Translations under genes and position numbers: made by a program
The notes under the pieces: generated by a model
Told to the model about the DNA's origin: nothing
Database searches by the model: none
What the model saw: the letters and a program-made list of their open reading frames with translations, nothing else
Origin: Haliotis rufescens
Lineage: Eukaryota
Assembly: GCF_023055435.1 (NCBI RefSeq)
Contig: NW_025963791.1
Span: 33,294,001 to 33,358,000 of the forward strand
DNA: 64,000 bases
Direction of reading: 5' to 3'
Part shown: positions 5,802 to 63,453 of the stretch, in pieces
How positions within the stretch are numbered: position 1 is the first letter of the stretch
Layout: the number at the start of each line of letters is the position of its first letter

Positions 5802-8624
5802 ATGTTGATGTATTCGCGGGTATGATGTATTCACGGGTATGATGTATTCACGGGTATGATGAAGTCATTGGTTTGATGTAGTCACGGGTATGATGTTGTC
5901 ATGGGTATGATGTAGTCACGAGTATGATGTATTCACAGGTATGATGTAGTCATGGGTATGATGTAGTCACGGGTATGATGTAGTCATGGCTATGATGTAG
6001 TCACGGGTATGATGTAGTCTTGGGTATGATGTAGTCTTGGGTATGATGAAGTCATGGTATGATGTAGTAGTGGGCATGATGTAGTCATGGGTATGATGTT
6101 TTCACGGGTGTGATGTACTCACGGGTATCATGTAGTCATGGGTATGATGTATTCACAGGTATGATGTAGTCATGGGTATGATGTACTCACGGGTATGATG
6201 TAGTCACGGGTATGATGTATTCAAGGGTATGATGTATTCACCGGTATGATGTATTCAAAGGTATAATGTAGTAGTGTGTATGATGTAGTCACGGGTATGA
6301 TGAAGTCATGGGTATGATGTAGTCACAGGTATGATGTAGTCACGGGTATGATGTATTCACAGGTATGATGTAGCCATGGGTATGATGTAGTCATGGTATG
6401 CTGTTATCATGGTTATGATGTTGTCAAGGGGATGATGTAGCCATGGGTATGATGTTTTCACGGGTGTGATGTACTCACGGGTGTGATGTATTCACCGGTA
6501 TGATGTATTCACAGGTATGATGTAGTAGTGGGTATGATGTAGTCACGGGTATGATGAAGTCATGGGTATGGTATTGTCACAGGTATGATGTAGTCACGGG
6601 TATGATGTATTCACAGGTATGATGTAGCCATGGGTATGATGTAGTCATGGTATGCTGGTATCATGGTTATGATGTTGTCACGGGTATGATGTAGCCATGG
6701 GTATGATGTAGTCACTGGTATGAAGTATTCACAGGTATGATGTATTCACGGGTATGATGTATTCACAGGTATGATGTAGTAGTGGGTATGATGTAGTCAT
6801 TGGTATCATGAAGTCATGGGTATGATCTATTCACAGGTGTGATGTAGTAGTGGACATGATGTAGTCATGGGTATGATTTTTTCACGGGTGTGATGTACTC
6901 ACGGGTATGATGTAGTCATGGGTATGATGTATTCACAGGTATGATGTAGTCACCGGTATGATCTACTCACGGGTATGATGTATTCACGGGTATGATGTAG
7001 TCGCGGGTATGATGTATTCAAGGGTATGATGTATTCACCGGTATGATGTATTCACAGGTATGATGTAGCAGTGGGTATGATGTAGGTACGGGTATGATGA
7101 AGTCATGGGTATGATGTAGTCACAGGTATGATGTAGTCACGGGTATGATGTATTCACAGGTATGATGTAGCCATGGGTATGATGTAGTCATGGTATGCTG
7201 TTATCATGGTTATGATGTTGTCACGGGTATGATGTAGCGATGGGTATGATGTTTTCACGGGTGTGATGTACTCACGGGTAGGATGTAGTCATGGGTAGGA
7301 TGTATTCACAGGTATGATGTAGTCATGGGTATGATGTACTCACGGGTATGATGTAGTCACGGGTATGATGTAGTCACGGGTATGATGTATTCAAGGGTAT
7401 GATGTATTCACAGGTATGATGTATTCACGGGTATGATGTAGTAGTGGGTATGATGTAGTCACGGGTATGATGAAGTCATGGGTATGATGTAGTCACAGGT
7501 ATGATGTAGTCACGGGTATGATGTATTCACAGGTATGATGTAGTCATGGTATGCTGTTATCATGGTTATGATGTTGTCACGGGTATGATGTAGCCATGGG
7601 TATGATGTAGTCACTGGTATGAAGTATTCACAGGTATGATGTATTCACCGGTATGATGTATTCACAGGTATGATGTAGTAGTGGGTATGATGTAGTCACG
7701 GGTATGATGAAGTCATGGGTATGATGTAGTCACAGGTATGATGTAGTCACGGGTATGATGTATTCACAGGTATAATGTTGTCATGGGTATGATGTTGTCA
7801 TGGGTATGATGTATTCACGGGTATGATGTAGTCACGGGTATGATGTAGTGACGGGTATGATGTATTCACAGGTATAATGTTGTCATGGGTATGATGTAGT
7901 CATGGGTATGATGTATTCACGGGTATGATGTAGTCATGGGTATGATGTAGCCATGGGTATGATGTTGTCACGGGTATGATGTATTCACAGGTATGATGTA
8001 GCCATGGGTATGATGTAGTCATGGTATGCTGTTATCATGGTTATGATGTTGTCACGGGTATGATGGGTATGATGTAGTCACTGGTATGAAGTATTCACGG
8101 GTATGATGTATTCACGGGTATGATGTATTCACAGGTATGATGTAGTAGTGGGTATGATGTATTCACAGGTATGATGTAGCCATGGGTATGATGTAGTCAT
8201 GGCATGCTGTTATCATGGTTATGATGTTGCCACGGGTATGATGTAGCCATGGGTATGATGTAGTCATGGTATGCTGTTATCATGGTTATGATGTTGTCAA
8301 GGGTATGGTGTAGCCATGGGTATGATGTAGTCACTGGTATGAAGTATTCACAGGTATGATGTATTCACGGGTATGATGTATTCACAGGTATGATGTAGTA
8401 GTGGGTATGATGTAGTCACGGGTATGATGAAGTCATGGGTATGAAGTAGTCACAGGTATGATGTAGTCATGGGTATGATGTATTCACCGGTATGATGTAG
8501 TCACCGGTATGATGTATTTACAGGTATGATGTTGCCATGGGTATGATGTAGTCATGGTATGATGTAGTGATGATTATGATGTTGTCATGGGTATGATGTA
8601 GTCACGGGTATGATGTAGTCACGG
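5802..8624. repeat. 17-bp minisatellite (ATGATGTAGTCACGGGT)n, ~165 units
   Basis: Period read directly (ATGATG at 5941 and 5958); recurring variant units such as ATGCTGTTATCATGGTT. Confidence 0.97.
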
Positions 8625-9857: not shown

Positions 9858-10090
9858 TACCCACGTACCCGACTCCCTATCACCTGACCCTACCCAGGTA
9901 CCCGACCCCCTATTACCTGAACCTACCCAGGTACCAGACTCCCTATTACCTGAACCTACCCAGGTGCCCGACTCCCTATTACCTGACCCTACCCAGGTAC
10001 CCGACTCCCTATCACCTGACCCTACCCAGGGACCCGACCCCCTATTACCTGACCCTACCCAGGTACCCTACACCCTGGCCTCACCCGACC
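9858..10090. repeat. 33-bp minisatellite (CCCTACCCAGGTACCCGACTCCCTATTACCTGA)n, ~6.5 units
   Basis: Direct reading; only ~1.5 units at the paralogous site ~20497-20560. Confidence 0.9.
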
Positions 10091-17392: not shown

Positions 17393-17429
17393 CAGGTACA
17401 CACAGAAGAGATGACGAGGCCTGCACTGG

Positions 17430-18142
17430 GTCACCAGTTTATATCTGGAGAGATAGTGACGTTGTGGCCTATAACAGTATTATGCATGTGGTTGCCAGCT
17501 GTCTCCTGTGTCACCAGTTTATACCTGGAGAGAGAGAGAGTGACACCGTGGCCTATAACAGTAATGCATATGTGGGTACCAGCTGTGTCCTGTGTCACCA
17601 GTTTATATCTGGAGATAGTGACGCTGTGGCCTATAACAGTATTGTGCATGTGGCTTCCAGCTGTGACCTGTGTCACCAGTTCATATCTGGAGAGAGAGTG
17701 ACGCTGTGGCCTATACCAGAATTGTGCATGTGGCTTCCAGCTGTGTCCTCTGTCACCAGTATATCTTGAGAGATAGTGACGCTGTGGCCTATAATATTAT
17801 TGTGCATGTGGTTGCCAGCTGTGTCCTGTGTCACCAGTTTATATCTGGAGAGAGTGACGCTGTGGCCTATATCAGTATTGTGCATGTTGCTACCAGCTGT
17901 GTCCTGTGTCACCAGTTTATATCTGGAGAGATAGTGTCGCTGTGGCCTATAACAGTATCGTGCATGTGGTTGCCAGCTGTGTCCTGTGTCACCAGTTTAT
18001 ATCTGGAGAGAGTGACGCTTTGGCCTATAACAGTATTGTGCATTTGGCTACCAGCTGTGTCCTGTGTCACCAGTTTATATCTGGAGAGAGTGACGCTTTG
18101 GCCTATAACAGTATTGTACATTTGGCTTTTAGCTCTGCCTTG
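17430..18142. repeat. 78-84-bp minisatellite, ~9 units
   Basis: GTCACCAGT recurs at 17430, 17510, 17594, 17672, 17752, 17830, 17908, 17988, 18066. Confidence 0.95.
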
Positions 18143-27712: not shown

Positions 27713-30045
27713 GTGAGATCCCACTTTCAGATGAATATGTAACCATGAGATCCCGCATTTAGATCAATATGTAACCATGCGATGACACATCTAGATGAAT
27801 ATGTAGGCATGAGATCCCACTTTTAGATAAACACGTCAGCATGAGATCCAAACTTTAGATGAACATGTAAACATGGGATCCCACTTTTAGATGAACATGT
27901 AAACATGAGATCCCACTTTTAGATGAACATGTAAACATGAGATCCCACTTTTAGATGAACATGTAAACATGGGATCCCACTTTTAGATGAACATGTAAAC
28001 ATGAGATCCCACTTTTAGTTGAACATGTAAACATGAGATCCCACTTTTAGTTGAACATGTAAACTTGAGATCCCACTTTTAGATGAACATGTGAGCATGA
28101 GATCCCAACTTTTAGATGAACATGTAAACATGAGATCCCACTTTTAGATGAACATGTAAACATGGGATCCCACTTTTAGATGAACATGTAAACTTGGGAT
28201 CCCACTTTTAGATGAACATGTAAACATGATATCTAACTTTTAGATGAACATGTAAACATGAGATCCCACTTTTAGATGAACATGTAAACATGAGATCCCA
28301 CTTTTAAATGAACATGTAAACATGGGATCCCACTTTTAGATGAACATGTAAACATGAGATCCCACTTTTAGATGAACATGTAAACATGAGATCCCACTTT
28401 TAGATGAACATGTAAACATGAGATCCCACTTTTAGATGAACATGTAAACATGAGATCCCACTTTTAGATGAACATGTAAACATGAGATCCCACTTTGAGA
28501 TGAACATGTAAACATGAGATCCCACTTTTAGATGAACATGTGAGCATGAGATCCCACTTTTAGATGAACATGTGAGCATGAGATCCCACTTTTAGATGAA
28601 CATGTAAACATGAGATCCCACTTTTAAATGAACATGTAAACATGAGATCCCACTTTTAGATGAACATGTAAACATGAGATGAACTTGTAAGCATGAGGTT
28701 CCACTTTTAGATGAATATGTAGGCATGAGATCCCACTTTTAGATGAACATGTAAACATGAGATCCCACTTTTAGATGAACATGTAAACATGGGATCCCAC
28801 TTTTAGATGAACATGTAAACATGGGATCCCACTTTTAGATGAACATGTAAACATGGGATCCCACTGTTAGATGAACATGTAAACATGGGATCCCACTTTG
28901 AGATGAACATGTGAGCATGAAATCCCACTTTTAGATGAACATGTGAGCATGAGATCCCACTTTTAGATGAACATGTGAGCATGAGATCCCACTTTTAGAT
29001 GAACATGTAAACATGAGATCCCACTTTTAGATGAACATGTGAACATGAGATCCCACTTTTAGATGAACATGTAAACATGAGATCCCACTTTTAGATGAAC
29101 ATGTGAACATGAGATCCCACTTTTAGATGAACATGTGAGCATGAGATCCCACTTTTAGATGAACATGTGAGCATGAGATCCCACTTTTAGATGAACATGT
29201 AAACATGCGATCCCACTTTTAGATGAACATGTAAACATGGGATCCCACTTTTAGATGAACATGTAAACATGGGATCCCACTTTTAGATGAACATGTCAGC
29301 ATGAGATCCCACTTTTAGATGAACATGTGAGCATGAGATCCAACTTTTAGATGAACATGTAAACATGAGATCCCACTTTTAGATGAACATGTAAACATGG
29401 GATCCCACTTTGAGATGAACATGTAAACATGGAATCCCACTTTGAGATGAACATGTGAGCATGAGATCCCACTTTTAGATGAACATGTGAGCATGAGATC
29501 CCACTTTTAGATGAACATGTAAACATGAGATCCCACTTTTAAATGAACATGTAAACATGAGATCCCACTTTTAGATGAACATGTAAACATGAGATGAACT
29601 TGTAAGCATGAGGTTCCACTTTTAGATGAATATGTAGGCATGAGATCCCACTTTTAGATGAACATGTAAACATGAGCTCCCACTTTTAGATGAACATGTA
29701 AACATGGGATCCCACTTTTAGATGAACATGTAAACATGGGATCCCACTTTTAGATGAACATGTAAACATGGGATCCCACTTTTAGATGAACATGTAAACT
29801 TGGGATCCCACTTTTAGATGAACATGTGAGCATGAGGTTCCACTTTTAGATGAACATGTAAACATGAGATCCCACTTTTAGATGAACATGTGAGCATGAG
29901 ATCCCACTTTTAGATGAACATGTGAACATGAGATCCCACTTTTAGATGAACATGTAAACATGAGATGAACTTGTAAGCATGAGATCCCACTTTTAGGTGA
30001 ACATGCAAGCATGAGATTTCACCTTTAGATAAACATGTAAACATG
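27713..30045. repeat. 32-bp minisatellite (ATGAGATCCCACTTTTAGATGAACATGTAAAC)n, ~73 units
   Basis: Period read directly (27841 to 27873); highly homogeneous. Confidence 0.97.
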
Positions 30046-49813: not shown

Positions 49814-52800
49814 ATGGCGGCGCTCGCGGATGGGTTTTCTCTTGCCAAGTTATCAGAAGAATCCGCACTAATTGGGATAGAAAAGGGAGAAAAACCAAAT
49901 GCAGTGATCATAACATCGAAGACCGGTTTCATAAATGAATATAAGGTAGATTACAGTGTATATCTATTGATGATGAGCAGTTTTAACATACTGGAAAACG
50001 ACATCCACGTGTGTTTTGATGGGAATGACCCTTATTTTCGTGCATCAAACGGGACACTTAATATGTTTCAGACACTGCTTAAGAGGTTGCGTTTTGTGTA
50101 AAAATGTCAACGACTTCTATAAAATAATTGACTAGTCATGACATCAAAGAAAAGCTAATAAAACCGTTTGAGTGGCATGCAGTGATATTTCTGCAGACAA
50201 ATGCCATTACTGTGGGACAGATTCATGATTTTTCAACTCTTGAGTTTTACAAAGAAAGATTTTATGACAATCAGTCCATGTCCTTGACAATGAACCAATC
50301 TGAAATCCAGAATGTGTCAGGTCAAATACTAAAATGTTATAATAATAAAGATCTAAAAGCATAATGTGTTGTACGTTATTGCCTATCTGTATCAGTGTCG
50401 ATCATGAATACATAAGCCATTGTTTTTTAACATATTTACACCATGAAGTAGTTCGTAATTTAAGGTATTCAATACAGGGATTTAGCTTCGAAGCGGATAT
50501 TTCGCCCGACATCTGCAGCAAATATCAGTAAAATTTCCCTATTGGAATTAATCATTTCACTTCTTTGAGAGGCATTTAGAAGTTGGAGTACTAAGCAGGG
50601 ATAAGATATATGGATGAATGTGGCAATCACAAAGTTGCAATCACATCAATCAACCAACTCAACAACCTGGAAAACAAGTACATCCACTCAGCTCCTAATT
50701 GTAATAAAGAAGTTGTTCATCCATATATCTTATCCTTACTTAAACTTAAACATTTCACAACTGAGTCTTATCATGTTCATGCTGTTATAGTTGTAACTAA
50801 TGTTATGTTGATGTTGAGATGCCTTGTATTTCACTACTAACAGTACCAATATAGAGGAATAACAGGATCAATATAGACATGATATAGAGGAATAACAGGA
50901 TCAATATAGACATGACAGAGGGAAAGGGTGCAGTACTTAGTTTGACATCGTTACATATTTGAATACAATGTTAATAGTCATTCTTAACATGGTTGCCGAA
51001 ATTAAAATATCTCTGAAAATGATTTGAACAAAATATTGATTTTTCCAAGTTTGTTTGTGAAGACGACTTAGGTTGGAATTCTAGATAAATTCCAGCAGTA
51101 GTTAAATTAAGTTTGTTTGTTTATTTGTTGTTTAACGCTGCACTCAGCAATATTCCTCTGTGATACTGATAGCAGTTTGTAAATAATCAAGGCTGCACCA
51201 AACAATCCTGTGATTGATGTCATGAACATTAATCCAAGCAAACCGGGATACAATGACAACCAAATCAGAGAGCCTGACCACCTGGTCACTTTAGTCGCCT
51301 CTCAGTCTCACGACAATCATAGTCGCCTCTCACGACAATCATAGTCGCCTCTTACGACAATCATAGTCGCCTCTTGCGGCAAGCATGGGTTACTGAAGTT
51401 AAGTAAATGAAGTATGTGTCCTATGGCTCTGATGAATGTTTACATTGTTTAGTCCCACTGATAATAATTAACATGAATATGGAATATTTTGATATTAACA
51501 ATAAATGGACACAAAATCAAGGGAGTGCCAACATAATGCATTGCTTGTAGTCATATTCATAAAGACCATGATGACAGGGTTACCTGTCAAATAATGAATA
51601 ACCTGAAATGATCAAAAGGTCCTGTGAGAAAGATTTACATGAACCATATCTACGCCATGAATTCTGGTAGTTTAAAAATTTGTTTAAAAAACAAAAGAAC
51701 ACAATAATGTTTATTACGAACAAAGTCTATGGAGCTCTGTGTTTGAAGTGTTTGAATGTTCTTGTTGCAGTTGTCTGACCAGAAACTGACCAGGAGTTGG
51801 TCACTGCGTCATGGCATCCAGATTACCTGCCCCACTGTTTGGAGCCCCACAAAGGAGGAGTATCTCACAGTACAGAACAAACAGGTCACATGTGCTTTGT
51901 ATTGTCAGTTAATGGATTGACTGATCTAAGTCAAAAGCTACTCACTGATAATGATGATGTCATCATCTGATAATGTTTGTTACATTAGTGTATAATCTAC
52001 ATGGCGTGAATACCAAAGTTTACTAAAAGAAGGCTAATATCTATGGATATTCTTTTTGTTTTGTTTGTTTGGTGTTTAATGCCGCACTCAGCAATATTCC
52101 AGCTATATGACGGCGGTCTGTAAATAATCAAATCTGGACCAGCCAATCCAGTGATTGACTTCATGAACATCGATCAACGTAATTGGGACATGATGACATG
52201 CATCAACCAAGTCAGCAGGCCTGACAACCCGATCCTGTTAGTCACCTTATGCGACAAGCATAGTCGCCTTTTACAGCAAGCATGGGTTGCTGTAGACCTA
52301 TTCTACCTTGGATTTTCACGGGTCCATCTGATCATAGATAGATATAGTAATTTTGTAAATCATTAAATTACTGCATGCAAAAGCCATCTTGTGGTGCCAG
52401 TCCTATATCGCATGCAAAAATTGTTGAGATCTCAGGCTTTGGTCTAAAGTGTGGGCATGAAAATTAATGCAAGTGGTCCTGCAGTTGAACTTTCAACATG
52501 TTCAAAATAAGTCATCATTTGATAACACCAAGACTGTAGACTTAGAATACACATATACAGCCTTATCAATTGGCACTATTCCTGTAGTCCTTGCCAAACT
52601 GCTTAATAGTTATGTATCATAAAGGCTAGTAGAAATTTGCCTTTTTTAAGGCTTTTGCTATATGTTGTTATTATAAGGACTAGTGGACTAAAAATGTTAG
52701 TTTCTGCTGCTGCATGATATAGTATTGGGTATTGCACTTAAATGGAACATTTGTAGAATCATATCATCAGAAAGTTAGGGCGGTCGGGTAGCCTAGTGGT

Positions 52801-55800
52801 TAAAGCGTTCGTTCGTCACGTCGAAGACCCGGGTTCTATTCCTGACATAGGTACAATGTGTGAAGCCCATTTCTGGTGTCCCCCGCCGTGATATTGCTGG
52901 AATATTGCTAAAAGCGGCTTAAAACCATACTCACTAATTCTTCACAAAGTTAAGTTCAGCTGCTTCACCATGTTGACATGTGATCAAACATCCATAAAAT
53001 CTAAAGCAGCAGATGCCAATTAAGGCATTTTGAAATGAGTTAGGTAAGGTCATGAAGACTGTGCACAGTCTAAGTGTTACACGATGAGCAGTTTCCTGTA
53101 TTCATGAGGGCTGTTGCTGTACTGAACATTTTCACTATGTGGATCAGCAGTGTTTTGCTTGTTATTATAAGACTATTGGACAGGACCTGAGTTCTATTCC
53201 CCACACTGATACAATATGTGAAGCATATATCTGGTGTCCCCGACAGCGATATTCCTGCTAGTGTCTTAAAGCAGCATAAAACCCTACTAGGGCTCTATTT
53301 AAGGAACTTGATGTAACTTGCACCAGGTGAATGTTGACATGAAAACCAAGTTGCACCAGACTAAACCAGGTTGCACCCTGGTCCCATAAATTTATCAAAG
53401 TTGAAACACAGGCTGGTCTGATGCCCGTGTCTGTAAAGTAATAACGTATTGCTGTAGAATTTAATAGGAACATGTCACATACTCTGGAAGTACCCACAGC
53501 TGGATGACAATCAATACAATACAGGGATTGGTAATTTGTAAAAGGGTACACAAAAATAATGCAAATGAATTACTCCTTTTGAAATAAGGAAAACACATGT
53601 ATGTAGCTACTTTCCTAGCGTGTGGTAGACTGAAACTTTATACAAATCAGAACCGTCCTAGCAAAGAAAGATGTGTAGAGAAGTCATTAAGCTTAGCCCT
53701 ATACAGTGAACATGTATAATAACCTATGTTGAAGTTTTACCTTCACATCATAAAAATCTACACGTTTTCTGATGCTACATTACACTAAGATTATCACATA
53801 CTGAACAGGGGCAGTCAGGTAGCCTAGTGGTTAAAGCGTTCGCTTGTCACGCCGAATACCCAGGTTAGATTCCCAACATGGGTACAATGTGTGAAGCCCA
53901 TTTCTGGTGTCCCCCGCCGTGATATTTCTGGAATATTGCTAACAGCGGCGTAAAACTATACTCACTCACATACTCACATACTGAATATACCAAAAATATG
54001 ACATGATTTACATTCAAAACATATTCAAAAGGTTCTTAGCTGATAGATAAACTTACATTATGGGTGGCTGGAGCTCGACCTGATACAGCAAGCAATGCTA
54101 AAACCCAATGTGGGGAACCCATGGAACCAATGTAGCGACCGAGAAACGTATGTTTTAAACTAGCACTTCCCGTTCTGAGCGAAGAAAATGATTGCAGACC
54201 ACTTAATAAACTATTACTGTTACTTGTAAAGGCACACACTTTGTGCATATAGGAGACCGCCTCCGTGGTCTTATGGTAGAGCTTCCGCCCGGAAAGCGGA
54301 AGGTCCGGGGTTCGATCCCCAGCCGCGTCATACCAAAAGACGTTAAAACATGGTACTTGTTGTTACCCTGTCTGGCACTCGGCATTAAGGAGCTAAAACA
54401 AGGACTGGTCGGCTCGGAGTCAGTATACTGTGTCTGAGTGGGGTATTCATGTTAAACTGTGGCAAGGTATCTCAGTGTGCTAGCACTATAAATCGGCATC
54501 AGTCCGGACTAGTACAAGCAGCCACACACACACATACACGTGCATGCACATCGCTATATAAGTGCAATAACCTTGGACGCGATGTTAAACGCCATTTCAC
54601 CTCACCTTGTGCATATAGACATAAATATTAGGTTGCATTTTTCAATAATAGGTTGCACTTGTGCATGTTTTATATACCTGTAGGTGAATCAAGCCATCCC
54701 AACTCTCCCCTATGTCCACCTCAGCTGACCACTCTCTTGAACTACTCTCGTTATGTATTAATCATGACCCTTTTACTCATACAGCTGTTTGATTCATTTT
54801 CAGCAATTAAAGTCATGGACCTCAGACACAACCAATTTTGATAAAGCTAAGAAAAAACATGTGAGTAGTGCTTTTTATCTTGCTTAATTATATATGTTAC
54901 CATGGTGATGATGGTTATATATATGTCACCATGGTGATGATGGTTATCTCCAAGTATCAGGCTCTGAATGTGCTAAGAGGTTTAGATATTCTAATTTCTT
55001 CTTTCTAATATTCAGCTTGACATTCTGCAGCGATGTGTAAGGCTGGGCTTTTTTGGTTCCACATTTGGAAAGGCAAACATTGTGGATAAAAAGTTCATTG
55101 TATATACAATGTACATATCAGGGCAACTTCATCAGGTGAATGATGGGGTGGCAGAAGCACGTGCTTAAAACAGAAGGCCCAGAATGCAATACTCAGGTGC
55201 CCATTCAATCACAGACAACTGGTCTTCAAATTCAAATTTCCAAATTGGGGTTAAGAGTGACCATTTTCAACATACACAAGTACAGTTATCATGACAGATG
55301 TTTTAACCCCTGGTTCTATATAAAGCAAAACATTTGTCACCTTAGATGAAAAACTAATATGTCATGTGTTTGGTTTCGTCACCAGGAACCACCTGGCTGT
55401 TGTTGTTACTCTCATTTAACGTGTAGTAACCGAAGCTCATTTTGTAGCCAACATAATTTACCTTTTTCAATGTCAGCATTTGGAATAAGTTCTGTTATTT
55501 AAACATCAGATCCACATGTTGAATTCATAATGAATAATCAGGGTTCAAAATTAACAGAAGTCCTCTTCTCTGCTTGGTTTGAGACAAGTCAACGTCATGT
55601 AAGACCAGTGTCATATGAACTACCTCTTTAACCATTCGGTAGATGGCGCCGCTGTAGCAGACTGGTTTTGTGGACAAGTGAAAATAGCAATCAATTTAAC
55701 ACTTATCACAGGGGACCGCCTCTGTGGTCTAGTGGTAGAGCGTCCGCCCGGAGAGCGGAAGGTCCGGAGTTCGATCCCCGTCAGCGTCATACCAAAAGAC

Positions 55801-58800
55801 GTTAAAAGATGGTACTTGTTGTTACCCTGTCTTGCACTAGGCATTAAGGGGCTAAATATAGAATACTAAATGAGGTCCCGTGTAATACCAATTTTATGAA
55901 ACGAGTGAATAGTTTTGGTATCTGACGAGTTTCATCAAATTGGTTTTACACGGTAGCGAGTTTAGTATTTTATTTATTACTTGCCATTTAAAATGTTTTT
56001 AGAATTATACTGTCGAGTGTGAATAGGCTGACACCTACACGATCCATGGCATAATACAATTGAGTTTAACAGAATAATACTTCAAACACGTCAAAAGTTG
56101 AAACGTATGAATTTAATACCATACAACGGTCTACCTTTAGAATTCAGGCATCCGTTCCACAAAAATATCGTAGCGTTAAGGTTATCGCAACTCACATATT
56201 TAAACTTAGACCAACGACTGTCGTTGCGCTACAGCACGATCGCCTTGTGGAACGGGGCCTTGCACCTCAAAGTTTACAATCATGTCACAATACCCGATGA
56301 TGTAATTTGTGGAATTTTGTTGCAAGATCCGTCGGCGAAACAATGCCATGTGACGTCAGCCTAGCAACAGGATTGCTGGGGTCATCGAGTGTGCTTAAGC
56401 TCCTCTCAGTGATCTATCATCTCCACACGCAATGTCGTTCAATAAGCCAAGGGATGTTGAGAGCTTTCAATATTTTTCGTGAAACGTGTTCCGAGAGTAC
56501 ATAAGCAAGCATTTTGGTATTACACAATGTGTAATACAGCTGTATGTTTATTAAACGGGTGATCTCTTCACGGGCAAGTAATAAAACAAGGACTGGTCGG
56601 CTCGGAGTCAGTATACTGTGTCCGAGTGGGGTATTCATGTTAAACTGTGGCATGGTATCTCAGTGAGCTAGCACTATAAATCGGCATCAGTCCGATCTAT
56701 CACAAGCAGCCACATACGTGCATACACGTCCCTATATAAGTGCAATAATCTTAGACGCGACGTTAAACCCCATTTCACCTCACCTCACTTATCATGGGCA
56801 CCAAATGTACATCCAAGCCATCACCAGACCCATCCTTGTGGAACTGAGATAATGCCATATGTGTCAATATTATCCTGACTATTATATGTTGTGTGTTTCA
56901 TCAGATCGGTGCAGACATCGTTCGGATCCTGGTGGAGACAGACTTCCTCCCCATCGTGGTGTGTGAGAATGGCCGAGTTGACTTCCAGGCTAACATCAAG
57001 GACAGCTGCAGCACGGGGACGCTGGCCCAGGAGGAAGCCATCTTGTGGTGTCAGTCCTATATCTGTGCTGGCAGTGTGTGTGTCGTCCTGGTCACTCGGA
57101 CACAGGTGAGTCCTAGGAGCGTGTGTGTCATCTTGGTCACTCGGACACAGGTGGGTCCTGGCAGTGTGTGTGTCGTCCTGGTCACTCGGACACAGGTGGG
57201 TCCTGGCAGTGTGTGTGTCGTCCTGGTCACTAGGACAGGGGTGGGTCCTGGCAGTGTGTGTGTCGTCCTGGTCACTAGGACAGGGGGTGGTCCTGGCAGT
57301 GTGTGTGTCGTCCTGGTCACTAGGACAGGGATGGGTCCTGGCAGTGTGTGTGTCGTCCTGGTCACTAGGACATGGGTGGGTCCTGACAGTGTGTGTGTCG
57401 TCCTGGTCACTCGGACACAGGTGAGTCCTGGCAGTGTGTGTTGTCCTGGTCACTAGGACACAGGTTGGTCCTGGCAGTGTGTGTGTCGTCCTGGTCACTA
57501 GGACAGGGGTGGGTCCTGGCAGTGTGTGTGTCGTCCTGGTCACTAGGACAGGGGTGGGTCCTGGCAGTGTGTGTGTCGTCCTGGTCACTAGGACAGGGGT
57601 GGGTCCTGGCAGTGTGTGTGTCGTCCTGGTCACTTGGACACAGGTGGGTCCTGACAGTGTGTGTGTCGTCCTGGTCACTCGGACACAGGTGAGTCCTGGC
57701 AGTGTGTGTGTGTGTTGTCCTGGTCACTAGGACACAGGTTGGTCCTGGCAGTGTGTGTGTCGTCCTGGTCACTAGGACAGGGGTGGGTCCTGGCAGTGTG
57801 TGTGTTCTCCTGGTCACTAGGACACAGGTTGGTCCTGGCAGTGTGTGTGTCGTCCTTGTCACTAGGACAGGGGTGGGTCCTGGCAGTGTGTGTGTCGTCC
57901 TGGTCACTAGGACAGGGGTGGGTCCTCACAGTGTGTGTGTCGTCCTGGTCACTAGGACAGGGGTGGGTCCTGACAGTGTGTGTGTCGTCCTGGTCACTAG
58001 GACACAGGTGGGTCCTGGCAGTGTGTGTGTCGTCCTTGTCACTAGGACAGGGATGGGTCCTGGCAGTGTGTGTGTCGTCCTTGTCACTAGGACAGGGGTG
58101 GGTCCTGACAGTGTGTGTGTCGTCCTGGTCACTAGGACAGGGGTGGGTCCTGGCAGTGTGTGTGTCGTCCTGGTCACTAGGACAGGGGTGGGTCCTGGCA
58201 GTGTGTATGTCGTCCTGGTCACTAGGACAGGGGTGGGTCCTGACAGTGTGTGTGTCGTCCTGGTCACTAGGACAGGGGTGGGTCCTGACAGTGTGTGTGT
58301 CGTCCTGGTCACTAGGACATGGGTGGGTCCTGACAGTGTGTGTGTCGTCCTGGTCACTTGGACAGGGGTGGGTCCTGACAGTGTGTGTGTCGTCCTGGTC
58401 ACTAGGACACGATTGGGTCCTGGCAGTGTGTGTGTCGTCCTGGTCACTAGGACACAGGTTGGTCCTGGCAGTGTGTGTGTCGTCCTGGTCACTAGGACAG
58501 GGGTGGGTCCTGGCAGTGTGTGTGTCGTCCTGGTCACTAGGACACAGGTTGGTCCTGGCAGTGTATGTGTCGTCCTGGTCACTAGGACAGGGGTGGGTCC
58601 TGGCAGTGTGTGTGTCGTCCTGGTCACTAGGACACGGGTGGGTCCTCGCAGTGTGTGTGTCGTCCTGGTCACTAGGACAGGGGTGGGTCCTCGCAGTGTG
58701 TGTGTCGTCCTGGTCACTAGGACACGATTGGGTCCTGGCAGTGTGTGTGTCGTCCTGGTCACTAGGACAGGGGTGGGTCCTGACAGTGTGTGTGTCGTCC

Positions 58801-61800
58801 TGGTCACTAGGACAGGGGTGGGTCCTGACAGTGTGTGTGTCGTCCTGGTCACTTGGACACAGGTGGGTCCTGACAGTGTGTGTGTGTGTTGTCCTGGTCA
58901 CTAGGACACGGGTGGGTCCTGACAGTGTGTGTGTCGTCCTGGTCACTAGGACAGGGGTGGGTCCTGGCAGTGTGTGTGTCGTCCTGGTCACTAGGACAGG
59001 GGTGGGTCCTGGCAGTGTGTGTGTCGTCCTGGTCACTTGGACACAGGTGGGTCCTGACAGTGTGTGTGTCGTCCTGGTCACTTGGACACAGGTGGGTCCT
59101 GACAGTGTGTGTGTCGTCCTGGTCACTAGGACATGGGTGGGTCCTCACAGTGTGTGTGTCGTCCTGGTCACTAGGACACGGGTGGGTCCTGACAGTGTGT
59201 GTGTCGTCCTGGTCACTAGGACAGGGGTGGGTCCTGGCAGTGTGTGTGTCGTCCCTGTCACTAGGACAGGGGTGGGTTCTGACAGTGTGTGTGTCGTCCT
59301 GGTCACTAGGACACAGGTGGGTCCTGACAGTGTGTGTGTCGTCCTGGTCACTCAGACACAGGTGGGTCCTGACAGTGTGTGTGTCGTCCTTGTCACTAGG
59401 ACAGGGGTGGGTCCTGACAGTGTGTGTGTCGTCCTGGTCACTAGGACACGGGTGGGTCCTGGCAGTGTGTGTGTCGTCCTGGTCACTTGGACAGGGGTGG
59501 GTCCTGACAGTGTGTGTGTCGTCTTCACTAGGACACGGGTGGGTCCTCGCAGTGTGTGTGTCGTCCTGGTCACTAGGACACGGTTGGGTCCTGACAGTGT
59601 GTGTGTCGTCCTGGTCACTAGGACACGGGTGGGTCCTGACAGTGTGTGTGTCGTCCTGGTCACTAGGACAGGGGTGGGTCCTGGCAGTGTGTGTGTCGTC
59701 CTGTGTAAACATCGATGTGATGTAAACATGGTTGTGTGTAAACATCGATGTGATGTAAACATGGTTGTGTGTGAAAACATCAATGTGATGTAAACATGGT
59801 TGTGTGTAAACATGGTTGTGAGTAAACATGGTTGTGTGTAAACATGGGTTTGTGTAAACAAAGTTTGAGTTAACTAGAGGCCTGCACAGGTTAGTTGAAA
59901 TGTATTTTCATCAAGATTCCCAGCTAACAATTTAGACAACATTGAAGATAATATTTTGTAAATCTGTCACATGGGCTTCCTACTTGTATACGACAGAGTG
60001 GTAATTACAGACAGCAGTTGGGATATTAACAGTCAGCCCTTGTATTTCAGGACCAGCTAGTGAGGGTCCACCGCCACACTTATCTGTCTGATGCAGAGTG
60101 CTGGAGCCTTAAGACCACGCCCCTGTCCCTGTCTGCCGACGCCCTACTCAGCTGCTGCCTCTCCCTGAAGGCGGAGCCCAGTCTCCTGTCACTGTGTAAG
60201 ACCTTTTAGTCTTTATTTGTTAGTTTATAAGAGTTTGGGGTCAAAAGTCAATATAAATGGTTTGGAACAATTTTTTACCATCCCAATTAACTAACTATAA
60301 TGGATGAAAATTGACACTCGTTTGAACAGATTCTGTCATCCCGTAAAAAGAATGTCAATCAATGTGCTGCTTGGGCCACCCTTAGGATATCGTTTTGATG
60401 CAAAAAATCAATTTGTAATGGTTTGTACGCTCAGACAGCTATAAGACAGTGTCAACACTGCCCCAAATTGTCAAATCTTGTATCACGTGTTGCAGGGCAA
60501 GATGGCCGGCTGCTTGACCTGCCGCTGACCGGGTCGTCCAATATGGATGACAGCCAGGAGGTGGCCACCATCTCGGGTGTACAGACAGACTCCTGCATGA
60601 TCTACCTCGACCACACCCACATCGCTGTGGCAGGCATCAGGCAGAACACCACAGGTTGGTCAGCGCAGTAGGGGTGTGTGGAGGTTGGAGTCCCATAGTT
60701 GCCAGCAATTTATTCCAGCCAAGCATCATTGAAATCAGATCTTTCACTCCGATAGGAGACCTCTCTGTATGAAGATCTGATGAAACCTCCGTAAAGGTCG
60801 CGCCGGGTCAGCCCAGACTTTGACACTGCCCAATTACAAAAAAGCTGCATGAGTTCTTGAGCCAGTCAGCTTTCAGTTTTCTAAAACAATTCAGCTTCAG
60901 TTTTACCTCATTCAGAAATTCCAATTTGTGCAAATGAAAACCTACATAAAATGCAAATACTCATACAATGGTACTCCTCTTTGTATGTAATATTATGACA
61001 CCCGATACTTCTTTCGGAACTTGTCATTTTAGTTCATTTTCAAGGTAGAGAAATCAGATATGCTGGTTTGAATCATTGAAGCCTGGACACTGATTGTCTG
61101 ATTTAATGCTCAGCTGACGTGACCTCCAATGGAGTTGACCTCCGATCACGCAGAGAGGTATCGTATCAGAGTAAACTATCTGATTATGATTAAATAGGTC
61201 AAATCACAACATTACAAATAATGATATCTGGTTGAGGAAAACTAGCGATAGATGGCTTGAGTTGTGAGAATCATGATACACTGTCAGACTTACCACATCG
61301 TTCATGCTTGGAATTATTACATTTGACATCAAAAGAGTCAATGAGACAATCCTTGGTTCATTTGTTTGTTTCAGTCGGACTTGGTATCTACAATGTGAAA
61401 TTCCAGGCTCTGCAGTCATGGCAACCATTCCCAGAACCATTGCTGACAAGACCTAAGGTGAGATAGAACTGTTTTAACGGAGGCATATTATTCTGAGTTG
61501 ATACCTGCTGAATGACCAATACGACTCCGTCTGCGTCTGCGTGGGGATTCAGAGTTTGAATAGGTCCCACGCAAACTATGCTGGTCTTAAGAGGAGACCA
61601 AGTGGATTGAGTGGTTTTTGTGTCGTCGTACCCCAAAGACATGGATCATTGCTCACAATGGAGATCACTGGATTGTCTGTCCCAGACTTGATTATTTACA
61701 GCTGGAATCTTGCTGAGTGCTGCATTAAAAAACAAACAAAATATTCTGTAAAGTAATGCTAATTGGCAATTGGTGGTGTTATATTCATTTGGTTTGTTAT

Positions 61801-63453
61801 AAGAATGCTATTTTTATCTGCATTACATATTGCACATTGCTCTTACGACCGAAACCCTAACTAGACATGAATGACGATCTATCAGAGGCTTCAGTAACTC
61901 TTTTGCCCAACATGACCTCCGTGACGCTCGTGACATCTTGTGTCAGAAGACATGCCCCCAGTTCCAACAAGGAGCAGATCCCCCTCCGTTCCAGAATGTC
62001 CTGGAGGAGAGGCCCTGGCAGAAACTGTTTGATCCAGTTCATCATGGAGGGGTGCTTTTGGAGCTCCACTACTGTATTTGCGTGCCAATACCTCCGGGGT
62101 GTGTCCGTAGAAGACATGGATGACGTGCCTGTGACGCAGCCCACCCTCATTCCCCCTCTGTCAAACAGTTTCCAGGTTTAAGGAGGGTAGAGTTGTAGTG
62201 AGTATTTCCAGTTTATCTAAACTCTTTAAAGTTTTAGGTTCTCATTTACTGGGTTGCCATGACAGCGCAATTCCGGGATTCATTCGGTTACCCAACGATT
62301 AGAGTACCGAAGGTTATGTCTGGTTTTCCCATGTGCTACTGTTGTAAGTGTCGAGGGAGCTGTGGAAGCTAATCATCTCAGGCAAGCCCAGCCTACAGGA
62401 CCACTCTACGAGATGCCATGACATGTGACAGCTATCCTAGCACTGGACTGAGGGTATGCACCACCGCCTACCACTGGATAAAGTGCAATATGTAATGCAG
62501 GATAAGTAACAAATATTACATAATCAGAGTCTTATGTATTTTATGTACTTATCCTGCATTACCCAAGGGCCTCCCCATAACTGATTTATTTCCCCCACTG
62601 CACCATCCGCCCTGAGGGACATTCAAAGACAATAATGACATATAGGAAGAGTGTTTTCCGACACCAGATGTCTCGAGGGTCATGGCGGTCATGCTGGGCA
62701 AAAGAGTTACTGAAGACACTGGTAGATCATCTTTCATTTCCAGTTAGGACTCTGGTGGGCAGAGCAATGTGCAATATGTAATGCAGGACATAAATTATCA
62801 TAATACTCTGATTATGGAATTATGGTTGCAGCTCTTCTGTCATTACGGCCACTTATTCCTTGCCTGCAACAAAACGCTGTATGCCTTCCCTTATAAGTGT
62901 GAGCCATCAACGGTTGCTAGGTTACTGGGTCAGAGAGACAAGGTCAAGGACACTGGAAAGGTCACCGATTTGGCTCATGGAGTTGTCAGTTGGTCCACCA
63001 AACAGAAGCCAGCACAGGTGGGATTGAATTTATGACAGTAATATTCATGATATTAGACCAAAGGAAAATCACGATTTTAAACACGATATGCAAAAATCAC
63101 GAATTCAAACACTACAACGGTTATATTAAACTGTATTTGTTTTACCCACCTTCTGATTCACATCTGTTAACAATGGCTGAGGATAAGTAGGGTTTTTTTG
63201 GTCTCATGAAATCACATACCACTGCCCACAATTATAAGGCATTAAGTTGCCCATGGGTAACAAAGATAAACACATATCTTCGTCCCTGTCAGAATAGGGT
63301 ACATGTGTAGGCCTAGAGGGAATGCATGGGGTAACCATAGTTACACAGTTACTCTAGGTGGACACAAGCTGAATTATGACATGCTGTTTTCAGAAGGCTG
63401 CAGGTGATCTGGAGATTGAGAATCTGTTCACAAGTCTCATTGACAAGACAAAG
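49814..63453 (+). CDS. NOL11: Nucleolar protein 11 (SSU processome t-UTP component), first nine coding exons; continues beyond the window
   Basis: Exons 49814-49945 (MAALADGFSL..NEYK), 51771-51884 (LSDQKLTRSWSLRHGIQITCPTV, cf. human [23 protein letters not shown]), 54804-54860, 56905-57105, 60051-60195, 60496-60654 (LDHTHIAVAG), 61375-61457 (IYNVKFQALQ, cf. VWNIKFQTLQ), 62832-63017 (GHLF..FPYKCEPSTVARLLG, cf. IPYKCEVSSLAGALG), 63394-63453; all GT-AG with consistent phase. Confidence 0.92.
51110..51398 (-). mobile_element. SINE-like family D with an internal ~22-bp tandem expansion
   Basis: GTTT tail, TTTAACGCTGCACTCAGCAATATTCC; repeated CACGACAATCATAGTCGCCTCT. Confidence 0.75.
52060..52325 (-). 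mobile_element. SINE-like family D
   Basis: Best-preserved copy of a dispersed ~260-bp family with an (AAAC)n tail and a 3' end related to families A and C. Confidence 0.8.
52778..52935 (+). mobile_element. SINE family A
   Basis: Full-length match to the family consensus. Confidence 0.92.
53808..53973 (+). mobile_element. SINE family A
   Basis: TSD TCACATACTGAA. Confidence 0.9.
54253..54606 (+). mobile_element. SINE family B, full length
   Basis: TSD TTGTGCATATAG at 54241-54252 and 54607-54618. Confidence 0.93.
55711..56785 (+). mobile_element. SINE family B split in two (55711-55856 and 56582-56785) by a ~725-bp insertion
   Basis: The halves join at GCTAAA|ACAAGG; TSD CACTTATCA flanks the composite. 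Confidence 0.9.
57070..59703 (+). repeat. 45-bp minisatellite (GGCAGTGTGTGTGTCGTCCTGGTCACTAGGACAGGGGTGGGTCCT)n, ~58 units, starting inside NOL11 exon 4
   Basis: CACAG ends at 57105, 57150, 57195 (period 45). Confidence 0.97.
59703..59860. repeat. Short TGTAAACATGGTTGTG / TGTAAACATCGATGTGA tandem repeats abutting the 45-bp array
   Basis: Direct reading. Confidence 0.85.
61818..62816. mobile_element. Fold-back / paired TIR-element complex in NOL11 intron 7
   Basis: 61818-61953 is a diverged inverted repeat of 62652-62786; extra TIR copies at 62483-62508 and 62520-62561. Confidence 0.65.

Follow-up and report, generated by a model that had tools for sequence, protein, structure and literature searches.

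A 45-bp minisatellite reiterating the exon 4 end and splice donor of NOL11 in Haliotis rufescens

The NOL11 gene of the abalone Haliotis rufescens carries in its intron 4 a minisatellite in which the end of exon 4, together with its 5' splice site, is tandemly reiterated. We consider it probable, with good confidence, that the array is a 'mirage'-type minisatellite, in which the exon 4 end and its donor were copied 58 times into the intron, splicing proceeds at the first donor and the repeat is carried as a likely neutral passenger. This reading draws on direct observation of the anatomy of the array, the old coding origin of its exon part, the use of the first donor under three organism labels, the occurrence of the array in a relative and the presence of many like arrays in the genome.

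Gene context and anatomy of the array

The window (the whole stretch of 64,000 nucleotides analysed) contains NOL11 exons 1-9, which reproduce the protein P0001 (NOL11-like, Haliotis rufescens) at 379/379 residues and are bordered by introns with GT/AG at every border (Table 1). The gene identity rests on P0001, because Pfam matched exon 2 (NOL11_N) and gave nothing for exon 4, for exon 5 or for units 1-8 read through.

Table 1. Features of the NOL11 locus in the window
Feature	Position	Strand	Remarks
NOL11 exons 1-3	49814-49945, 51771-51884, 54804-54860	+	
29-nt copy (28/29 identical) of exon 4 57035-57063, in intron 2	52381..52409	+	Flanked on both sides by a 10-nt direct repeat
NOL11 exon 4, 201 nt, phase 0	56905..57105	+	RNA contigs, orthologues
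Authentic 5' splice site CAG/GTGAGT	57103..57111	+	Strongest of nine NOL11 donors in the window; used in RNA contigs
45-bp minisatellite, 58 full units and a partial one	57070..59703	+	Unit 1 = exon 4 end and donor
Units 2-8, in-frame stop-free extension of 15 to 105 aa if used	57117..57429	+	GT kept at 57150, 57195, 57240, 57375, 57420
Unit 8 donor, second with the consensus; would add 105 aa in frame	57418..57426	+	No use seen
First in-frame stop TAG, after the unit 9 slip	57454..57456	+	
Third consensus donor (unit 14), out of frame	57686..57694	+	Downstream of the stop
Separate short 33/16-bp tandem repeat adjoining the array	59702..59860	+	Stretch 50 nt shorter in organism C
NOL11 exon 5	60051..60195	+	Acceptor AG at 60049-60050
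NOL11 exons 6-9	60496-60654, 61375-61457, 62832-63017, 63394-63453	+	Gene runs on past the window

The original prediction of a 45-bp unit made of the exon 4 end and nine intronic nucleotides, repeated about 58 times, was confirmed in two ways. TRF reports a tandem array at 57068-59703 (period 45, 58.5 copies, 92% matches, score 4304), and parsing by unit yields 58 full units and one partial unit of 21 nt, with unit 1 (57070-57114) comprising the final 36 nt of exon 4 and 9 intronic nt. Six other arrays of the window (17-, 33-, 78- and 32-bp units) were inspected, and none visibly starts at an exon end, as judged by eye from their flanks. An assembly artefact is unlikely, as the array recurs, with its 3' end unchanged, in a DNA run that carries the label of another organism.

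The donor 9-mers (written exon/intron) of the 57 copies are dominated by GGG/GTGGGT (26), from which units 1-3 differ, followed by CAG/GTGGGT (9), CGG/GTGGGT (6), CAG/GTTGGT (5) and TGG/GTGGGT (3); six copies are without GT and the authentic CAG/GTGAGT is retained in 2/57. The three predicted consensus donors were all found: the authentic one at 57105, an in-frame one 315 nt further on at 57420, and one at 57688 whose offset of 583 nt puts it out of frame. Units 8-9 and 14-15 resemble copies of one block, and by this resemblance the unit 14 donor is probably a block copy of that of unit 8, the two 'surviving' consensus donors then representing one event. The claim of a 15-codon unit free of stops holds for the unit in the NOL11 frame and fails for the array, since unit 9 has 43 nt and the 2-nt slip brings a TAG into frame at 57454. 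The 50 donors in units 9-58 all lie downstream of this premature stop; only units 2-8 could therefore lengthen the protein.

Splicing and strength of the reiterated donors

Contigs of three runs with three organism labels (X2, X9, X11) join 57105 to 60051 and thereby establish the premise that exon 4 ends at 57105. None of the runs listed is on record as RNA, and these were treated as such because GT..AG joints are seen for exons 5-9. In each of the three runs the sole contig on exon 4 runs from 57105 into exon 5, and contig coverage of 57107-57160 is zero; the evidence consists of assembled contigs, from which rare forms can drop out. The loose ends of contigs on the exon 5 side are mostly dispersed repeats.

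In the protein comparisons, P0001 and P0003 have no insertion at the exon 4/5 junction, at most five extra residues occur there among 51 NOL11 homologues, and protein searches yielded no longer NOL11 form. The NOL11 protein appears unchanged by the array, and the length-variable isoforms that had been proposed find no counterpart, as no contig enters the array in any of the three runs. The postulated ladder of competing 5' splice sites stands as a series of potential donors, GT being retained in 51/57 copies, and finds no support as competition, the contigs, which can miss rare use, showing 57105 alone.

The description of most copies as 'weakened' did not hold, as they mostly score like real NOL11 donors. 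Units 2 and 3 score 11.4 against 12.0 for the authentic donor by position weight matrix and -11.4 against -12.2 kcal/mol as U1 duplexes, and the unit 8 donor is identical to the authentic one. The GGG/GTGGGT variant pairs with the 5' end of this genome's U1 more strongly than 6/8 other NOL11 donors, while CAG/GTTGGT is the very 9-mer of the exon 6 donor. These scores suggest that the pseudo-sites of the array are competent as donors.

Donor-spanning arrays in the genome

Arrays spanning a donor were found at 8/150 sampled kinesin/myosin exon ends, as compared to 1.2-1.8 expected, and make up 16/104 of the long arrays within 62 kinesin/myosin loci. Among ALDH/DEAD exon matches, 1/45 has such an array, with 0/30 for the DEAD family, several matches of which look intron-poor and make a weak denominator. 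Acceptor-spanning arrays showed no significant enrichment (3/150 exon starts; sense 8/92 vs antisense 3/91, P=0.21). The prevalence of such arrays is the new part of this analysis, the NOL11 locus itself being ordinary.

For a comparison of donor divergence, the NOL11 array was set beside 17 other donor-spanning arrays of the Haliotis rufescens genome. The NOL11 array ranks first of the 18 for donor excess (divergence 0.277 in the donor window vs 0.057 in the exon part). This excess is weak because it reflects few events, 9/29 distinct variants falling in the donor positions, which make up 9/45 of the unit (P=0.11). In 6/17 other arrays the donor positions exceed the remainder of the unit in divergence (Wilcoxon P=0.10, with the trend reversed), and in 7/17 they exceed the exon positions (P=0.40). 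The consensus donor equals the authentic donor in 12/18 arrays, and the authentic 9-mer is found unaltered in 200/388 copies over the 18 arrays, with extremes of 33/34 copies in one ALDH array and 44/48 in one kinesin array; this control is biased toward donor conservation, as visible donors ease the recognition of an array.

Alternative explanations

The possibility that a dispersed mobile minisatellite landed in NOL11 and supplied both exon end and donor is hardly credible. A stray stretch of 101 nt, about 2.3 units long, does occur elsewhere, at C1:68946745-68946845 on a different chromosome-scale contig, where it is inserted 4 nt behind a donor and lies antisense within a myosin-like intron. 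However, this is the one outside copy found (that is, at least one), and its best match is to units 2-4 of the NOL11 array, pointing to a likely outward flow. The final 36 nt of exon 4 encode G157-Q168, including a predicted propeller strand (158-166), and the unit 1 residues align gap-free with the Gigantopelta orthologue, which is collinear over the junction, and match a conserved strand in the 51 homologues. By these alignments the exon part of the unit is old coding sequence; a mobile origin is largely refuted, and was rejected on the orthologue collinearity. It is less far-fetched, and still unlikely, that the array works as a leaky ladder, in which 57150, 57195 and 57420 are used at a low real rate to give NOL11 with one to seven extra copies of the propeller strand, deeper donors leading to nonsense-mediated decay (NMD) and trimming expression according to array length. 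The near-authentic scores of units 2 and 3 and the identity of unit 8 favour such leakage, as do the position of the exon 4/5 junction, which in the predicted fold is a turn between two propeller strands, and the two proximal pseudo-sites described as used in human IFI 6-16 and CBS (PMC1557585). These points are opposed by the silence of the array in the contigs of all three runs, by the lack of a longer form among the proteins searched and by the cited account of F7, in which identical downstream sites are silent (PMC1557585).

It was also proposed that selection against cryptic splicing in an essential gene drove weakened donors through the array, or that the array serves as a U1 decoy; together with a role of its G-runs as a splicing enhancer, we regard these readings as quite improbable. 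Three of the four differences between the array consensus and unit 1 fall inside the 9-nt donor window, the array ranks first for donor excess, and the changes add G-runs, of which the array has 87 (three or more G), with no canonical G-quadruplex pattern in it. Yet the distinct variants are not significantly concentrated in the donor, the 17 other arrays display no such trend, albeit in a control biased toward conservation, and most copies keep GT in variants no weaker than several real NOL11 donors. The claim of selection was accordingly not sustained, while mild selection may act at the NOL11 array, given the scarcity of authentic 9-mers and the top donor excess. A U1 decoy for one pre-mRNA among many similar arrays seems implausible.

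Probable origin and significance

As a mirage-type passenger, the array could have been born by a slip or template switch among three near-identical heptamers surrounding the junction at 57065, 57085 and 57110 (spacing 20 + 25 = 45 nt), giving the first duplication. Amplification would have followed by unequal exchange or slippage, with a few variants swept through and block duplications added. The A>G change at +4 would have come early, since it is seen in the units of the relative and in the 101-nt copy, and the changes at -3/-2 likely came later. The first donor would win as the most upstream and the strongest, closing the normal 201-nt exon, comparable to the 5'-to-3' selection in F7; transcripts leaking past unit 8 would meet the premature stop and likely be removed by NMD. 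Units 2 and 3, being near-consensus and in frame, speak against the passenger reading.

The proposed check in related species brought out a shared array, not the single unit that had been envisaged: the array is present in a relative (the DNA run with the other organism label), and unit variants in organism C differ from those of Haliotis rufescens. The summed contig depth for X15, 2139-2450 vs 38.5, indicates many copies and is not itself a copy number. Four runs listed no differences at 57070-57105, a weak test that lends no support to an exchange of sequence between the copies and the exon. Retention of the array in at least two lineages is allowed, and not predicted, by neutrality.

A tentative extension, which we hold to be possible and rather doubtful, is that minisatellites in abalone arise by preference at exon 3' ends, affecting about 1 exon in 20 and about 1 long intragenic array in 6, that is, 4-6x above uniform birth. 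A junction-aimed break followed by a template switch would explain this bias, the exon 4 piece in intron 2 and the array piece behind a donor on the other chromosome. If true, the genome would offer thousands of polymorphic donor ladders as a natural test set for the first-donor rule, and for intron gain through duplication, in an invertebrate. The genome-wide bias toward exon ends is a lead worth following and, should the enrichment stem from a mutational process directed at exon ends, would bear on minisatellite birth and intron gain by duplication. In the sampled genes these arrays are frequent and enriched, most of them with strong donors, which speaks for a first-donor selection that holds up well in an invertebrate and has no need of decoy erosion. 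Such arrays can also be a trap for gene prediction and for the mapping of reads in abalone.

Comparison with known systems

Mirage minisatellites have been described in amphioxus, in Adh3, troponin C, the globins BflGb6/BflGb9 and PGBD5, and are suggested in these accounts to be widespread in that invertebrate genome (PMC3087553, PMC3902484). The amphioxus repeats, as reported there, share with the NOL11 array the tandem duplication of an exon-intron boundary, a splice signal in many and not all units, and a homogenised interior with deviant boundary units, as with the single prevailing variant and the deviating units 1-3 of NOL11. Regular splicing is reported as undisturbed in amphioxus (PMC3087553, PMC3902484), and NOL11 is alike in its main form in 3/3 runs, contigs being blind to rare forms. 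A boundary-spanning head-to-tail unit, a splice signal in many units, regular splicing and concerted evolution were all found for NOL11; in the amphioxus accounts, length instability between alleles or cells is a further mark of the class (PMC3087553, PMC3902484). The likeness is one of anatomy, with no sequence homology, and the NOL11 array differs in its mollusc host and in its 58 copies, the globin and PGBD5 repeats having 3-7.

Minisatellites that reiterate a donor, with 10-25 units, are also described for human CBS intron 13, IFI 6-16 intron 2, LMNB2 and PDGF intron 4 (PMC1557585). CBS and IFI 6-16 differ from NOL11 in using two proximal pseudo-sites also, as described there, none being seen for NOL11 at the limited sensitivity of the contigs. 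The 37-bp VNTR of human F7 intron 7 comprises 5-9 units that include 4 exonic nt and carry identical pseudo-sites; these are described as functional once the first donor is mutated, by 5'-to-3' selection (PMC1557585). F7, according to this account, and NOL11 have in common a first monomer over the exon-intron boundary that reiterates the donor, pseudo-donors downstream, and use seen only at the most upstream donor, whereas the NOL11 unit contains 36 exonic nt, has a length that keeps the frame and occurs 58 times, with pseudo-sites identical to the real one in only 2/57 copies. The NOL11 array is thus the same kind of repeat as the F7 VNTR, and not an F7-like perfect array. Taken alone, the NOL11 locus is of minor importance, and extends a known class by a large molluscan case.

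Structure and origin of the NOL11 array

The minisatellite in intron 4 of NOL11 is built as the original prediction described, from 45-bp units made of the end of exon 4 and its donor; this was confirmed by TRF (57068-59703, period 45, 58.5 copies, matches 92%) and by parsing into 58 full units and one partial unit of 21 nt. In unit 1, the final 36 nt of exon 4 are followed by 9 intronic nt. Four interior units deviate in length (43, 49, 49 and 42 nt). Unit 9, with 43 nt, causes a frameshift that leads to a stop at 57454, so that the protein could be lengthened only from units 2-8 (by 15-105 aa); a premature stop precedes every donor after unit 8, including where the frame returns at unit 41. 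Three sites, 57105, 57420 and 57688, have the consensus donor; the second and third belong to units 8-9 and 14-15, which form a duplicated block.

Exon 4 matches the H. rufescens NOL11-like protein P0001, whose first 379 residues are the exact translation of exons 1-9 of the window. The exon 4-5 junction is identical in the H. cracherodii protein and aligns without gaps in the Gigantopelta orthologue, and more than five extra residues at residues 160-176 were found in none of 52 aligned full-length sequences, picked from the 150 homologues listed and P0001-P0003. A predicted model (mean pLDDT 84.7) has a strand at residues 158-166, within the N-terminal beta domain, and places the junction in the turn after this strand. 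Old coding sequence is therefore the source of the array unit, and the exon end was not supplied by the repeat.

Near-identical heptamers are present at 57065, 57085 and 57110, and the middle one is where the array ends. They would provide microhomology for an initial 45-nt duplication, which would then have been followed by amplification and homogenisation, with block duplications. Intron 2 contains a 29-nt copy of sequence from exon 4 whose source ends 6 nt before unit 1. The copy is bounded by 10-nt direct repeats and looks like a templated insertion; at the equivalent of 57051 it carries the base of all four compared runs, which differs from that of the window. No further such echo was found for the nine NOL11 exons examined. 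A search of this genome with the unit found one copy outside NOL11, a 101-nt antisense piece of ~2.3 units lying on C1, another chromosome-scale contig, 4 nt inside a myosin-like intron, behind the donor of the exon. It is most like units 2-4 and would keep an earlier state of the array with CAG|GTGGGT donors. The array, the C1 piece and the intron 2 copy suggest that the exon 4 end region served three times as a copying template. The 10 kb around the C1 piece also hold two unrelated arrays, each running from an exon end through its donor, in the same myosin-like gene.

Features identified in the window and in this genome (L, fetched stretches; C, contigs)
Feature	Location	Remarks
Intron 2 copy of exon 4 sequence	window 52381-52409	29 nt
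Stop-free frame, NOL11 intron 7	window 61864-62178	~105 codons, outside NOL11 coding; covered by none of the RNA contigs aligned
Array	window 5806-8624	17 bp x 167
Array	window 9858-10076	33 bp x 6.6; proline-rich repeat open in one frame
Array	window 17426-18127	78 bp x 9
Array	window 27714-30045	32 bp x ~73
Lone NOL11 exon 2 copy	L008:5133-5340 (C13, ~60 kb past window)	97.6%, with intron 2 start; no other NOL11 exons found nearby
Array unit copy	C1:68946745-68946845 (L005:4746-4846)	101 nt
Donor-spanning array	L005:2151-2590	41 bp x ~10; exon matches Myosin_head
Donor-spanning array	L005:7090-8841	48 bp x 36.5; exon matches Myosin_head
Array adjoining the C1 myosin-like gene	L131:58-10000	21 bp, at least 473 copies (~10 kb)
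Myosin-head paralogue cluster	C113:12.86-14.29 Mb	at least 15 genes
U1 snRNA genes in tandem	C46:11177777-11242436 (L011, L012)	592-bp period, at least 42 copies
Donor-spanning arrays in kinesin, myosin and ALDH genes (n=17)	L075, L080, L087, L089, L090, L091, L092, L100, L101, L104, L105, L111, L113, L118, L122, L123, L134	5-48 copies, exon parts 8-62 nt, strong donors mostly kept
Acceptor-spanning arrays	L062, L076, L090, L094, L123 (three arrays)	true AG and exon start in last unit
Four junction arrays	L123	inside 10 kb

Splicing and donor strength

Exons 5-9 are joined at GT..AG joints in assembled contigs of the sequencing runs X2, X6 and X9. One contig each from X2, X9 and X11 (organism labels A, B and D) covers exon 4 and exits at 57105 to exon 5; none of them covers 57107-57160, rare forms being below the reach of contigs. 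The main NOL11 transcript passes over the array. In a DNA run of organism C the array is present, its units having variants of their own and its 3' end being the same as here; a contig of 2019 nt, identified across two comparisons by length and depth, connects its final unit with the region of exons 5-7.

Most copies had been regarded as weakened donors, a view that their scores do not support. These come from a position-independent donor matrix built on 146 exon matches and inflated by the picking of the best GT. The authentic donor reaches 12.0 and three of the variants 11.4 (CAG|GTGGGT), 9.3 (CAG|GTTGGT) and 8.4 (GGG|GTGGGT), all above the median real donor (8.1). CAG|GTTGGT is also the 9-mer of the NOL11 exon 6 donor. 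The U1 5' end in this genome is canonical, and the commonest array copy forms a stronger duplex with it than do six of the eight other NOL11 donors. The ladder is, by its scores, mostly competent, and it is apparently unused; splice choice would follow position, strength and exon size. As far as tests could reach them, the functions proposed for the array (length-variable isoforms, NMD substrates or a U1 decoy) find no support.

Junction-spanning arrays in the genome

The survey of exon matches of Pfam families used 110 of 124 matches for kinesin and 40 of 122 for myosin. Contigs that seemed to be duplicates, the greater part of one paralogue cluster and matches beyond the fetched stretches were excluded. 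Minisatellites make up 16-17% of the gene-centred DNA of these 62 loci (606 kb; L058, L062, L073-L132). Counted by eye, arrays span donors at 8/150 exon ends and acceptors at 3/150 exon starts; donor-spanning arrays were found at 1/15 ALDH and 0/30 DEAD exon ends. Long arrays were also tested ab initio for an exon that ends at their first unit or shortly before it: 17/91 arrays passed on the gene strand vs 2/92 on the opposite strand (P=2e-4), three of the 17 abutting the donor rather than spanning it. Manually, 16 donor-spanning and seven acceptor-spanning cases were counted among 104 long arrays, and the NOL11 array exceeds each of these 16 in copy number (maximum 48). Eight donor-side exons lie beyond the HMM list: four have a kinesin-family Pfam match (E<1e-5), one has weak unrelated matches only and three have none. 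Junction-spanning arrays are common in this genome. The long arrays also show a G-rich sense-strand bias (64/104, P=0.02).

Birth of the arrays and divergence of their donors

Under uniform birth 1.2-1.8 donor-spanning arrays are expected for the eight observed (Poisson P <=5e-4). Since this null takes no account of base composition and donor arrays are GC-richer than the background (0.51 vs 0.40), exon-like sequence may simply amplify more readily, with purging of arrays that arose entirely within exons. A genome-wide process in abalone that directs minisatellite birth to junctions is less likely than not.

The spread of donor variants had been attributed to selection against cryptic splicing. 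NOL11 is the extreme of 18 donor-spanning arrays, its donor excess resting on few events (9/29 distinct variants, P=0.11). The 17 others show no trend of this kind, donor positions diverging more than other positions in 6/17. The 18 arrays (388 copies) hold the authentic 9-mer in 200 copies and GT in 355, and the consensus donor equals the authentic donor in 12/18, a control weakened by the easier recognition of arrays with intact donors. Decoys therefore need not erode as a rule, and the NOL11 divergence is adequately explained if a small number of variants drifted.

Comparison with known systems

A literature search, with subscription papers mostly outside its scope, found no genome-wide count of junction-spanning arrays in a mollusc. 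For another abalone gene, the accessible text of PMC6905558 describes a length-polymorphic 27-bp intronic minisatellite and does not call it junction-spanning. PMC2812944 deals with tandem repeats at the exon-intron boundaries of human genes, and PMC1557585 describes F7 and lists CBS, IFI 6-16, LMNB2 and PDGF as minisatellite cases. Amphioxus mirage minisatellites are described in PMC3087553 and PMC3902484 and are reported to leave splicing undisturbed. The NOL11 array is a large, newly found member of this known class of mirage or junction-spanning minisatellites, and human F7 likewise carries competent downstream donors without use, as seems true of NOL11.
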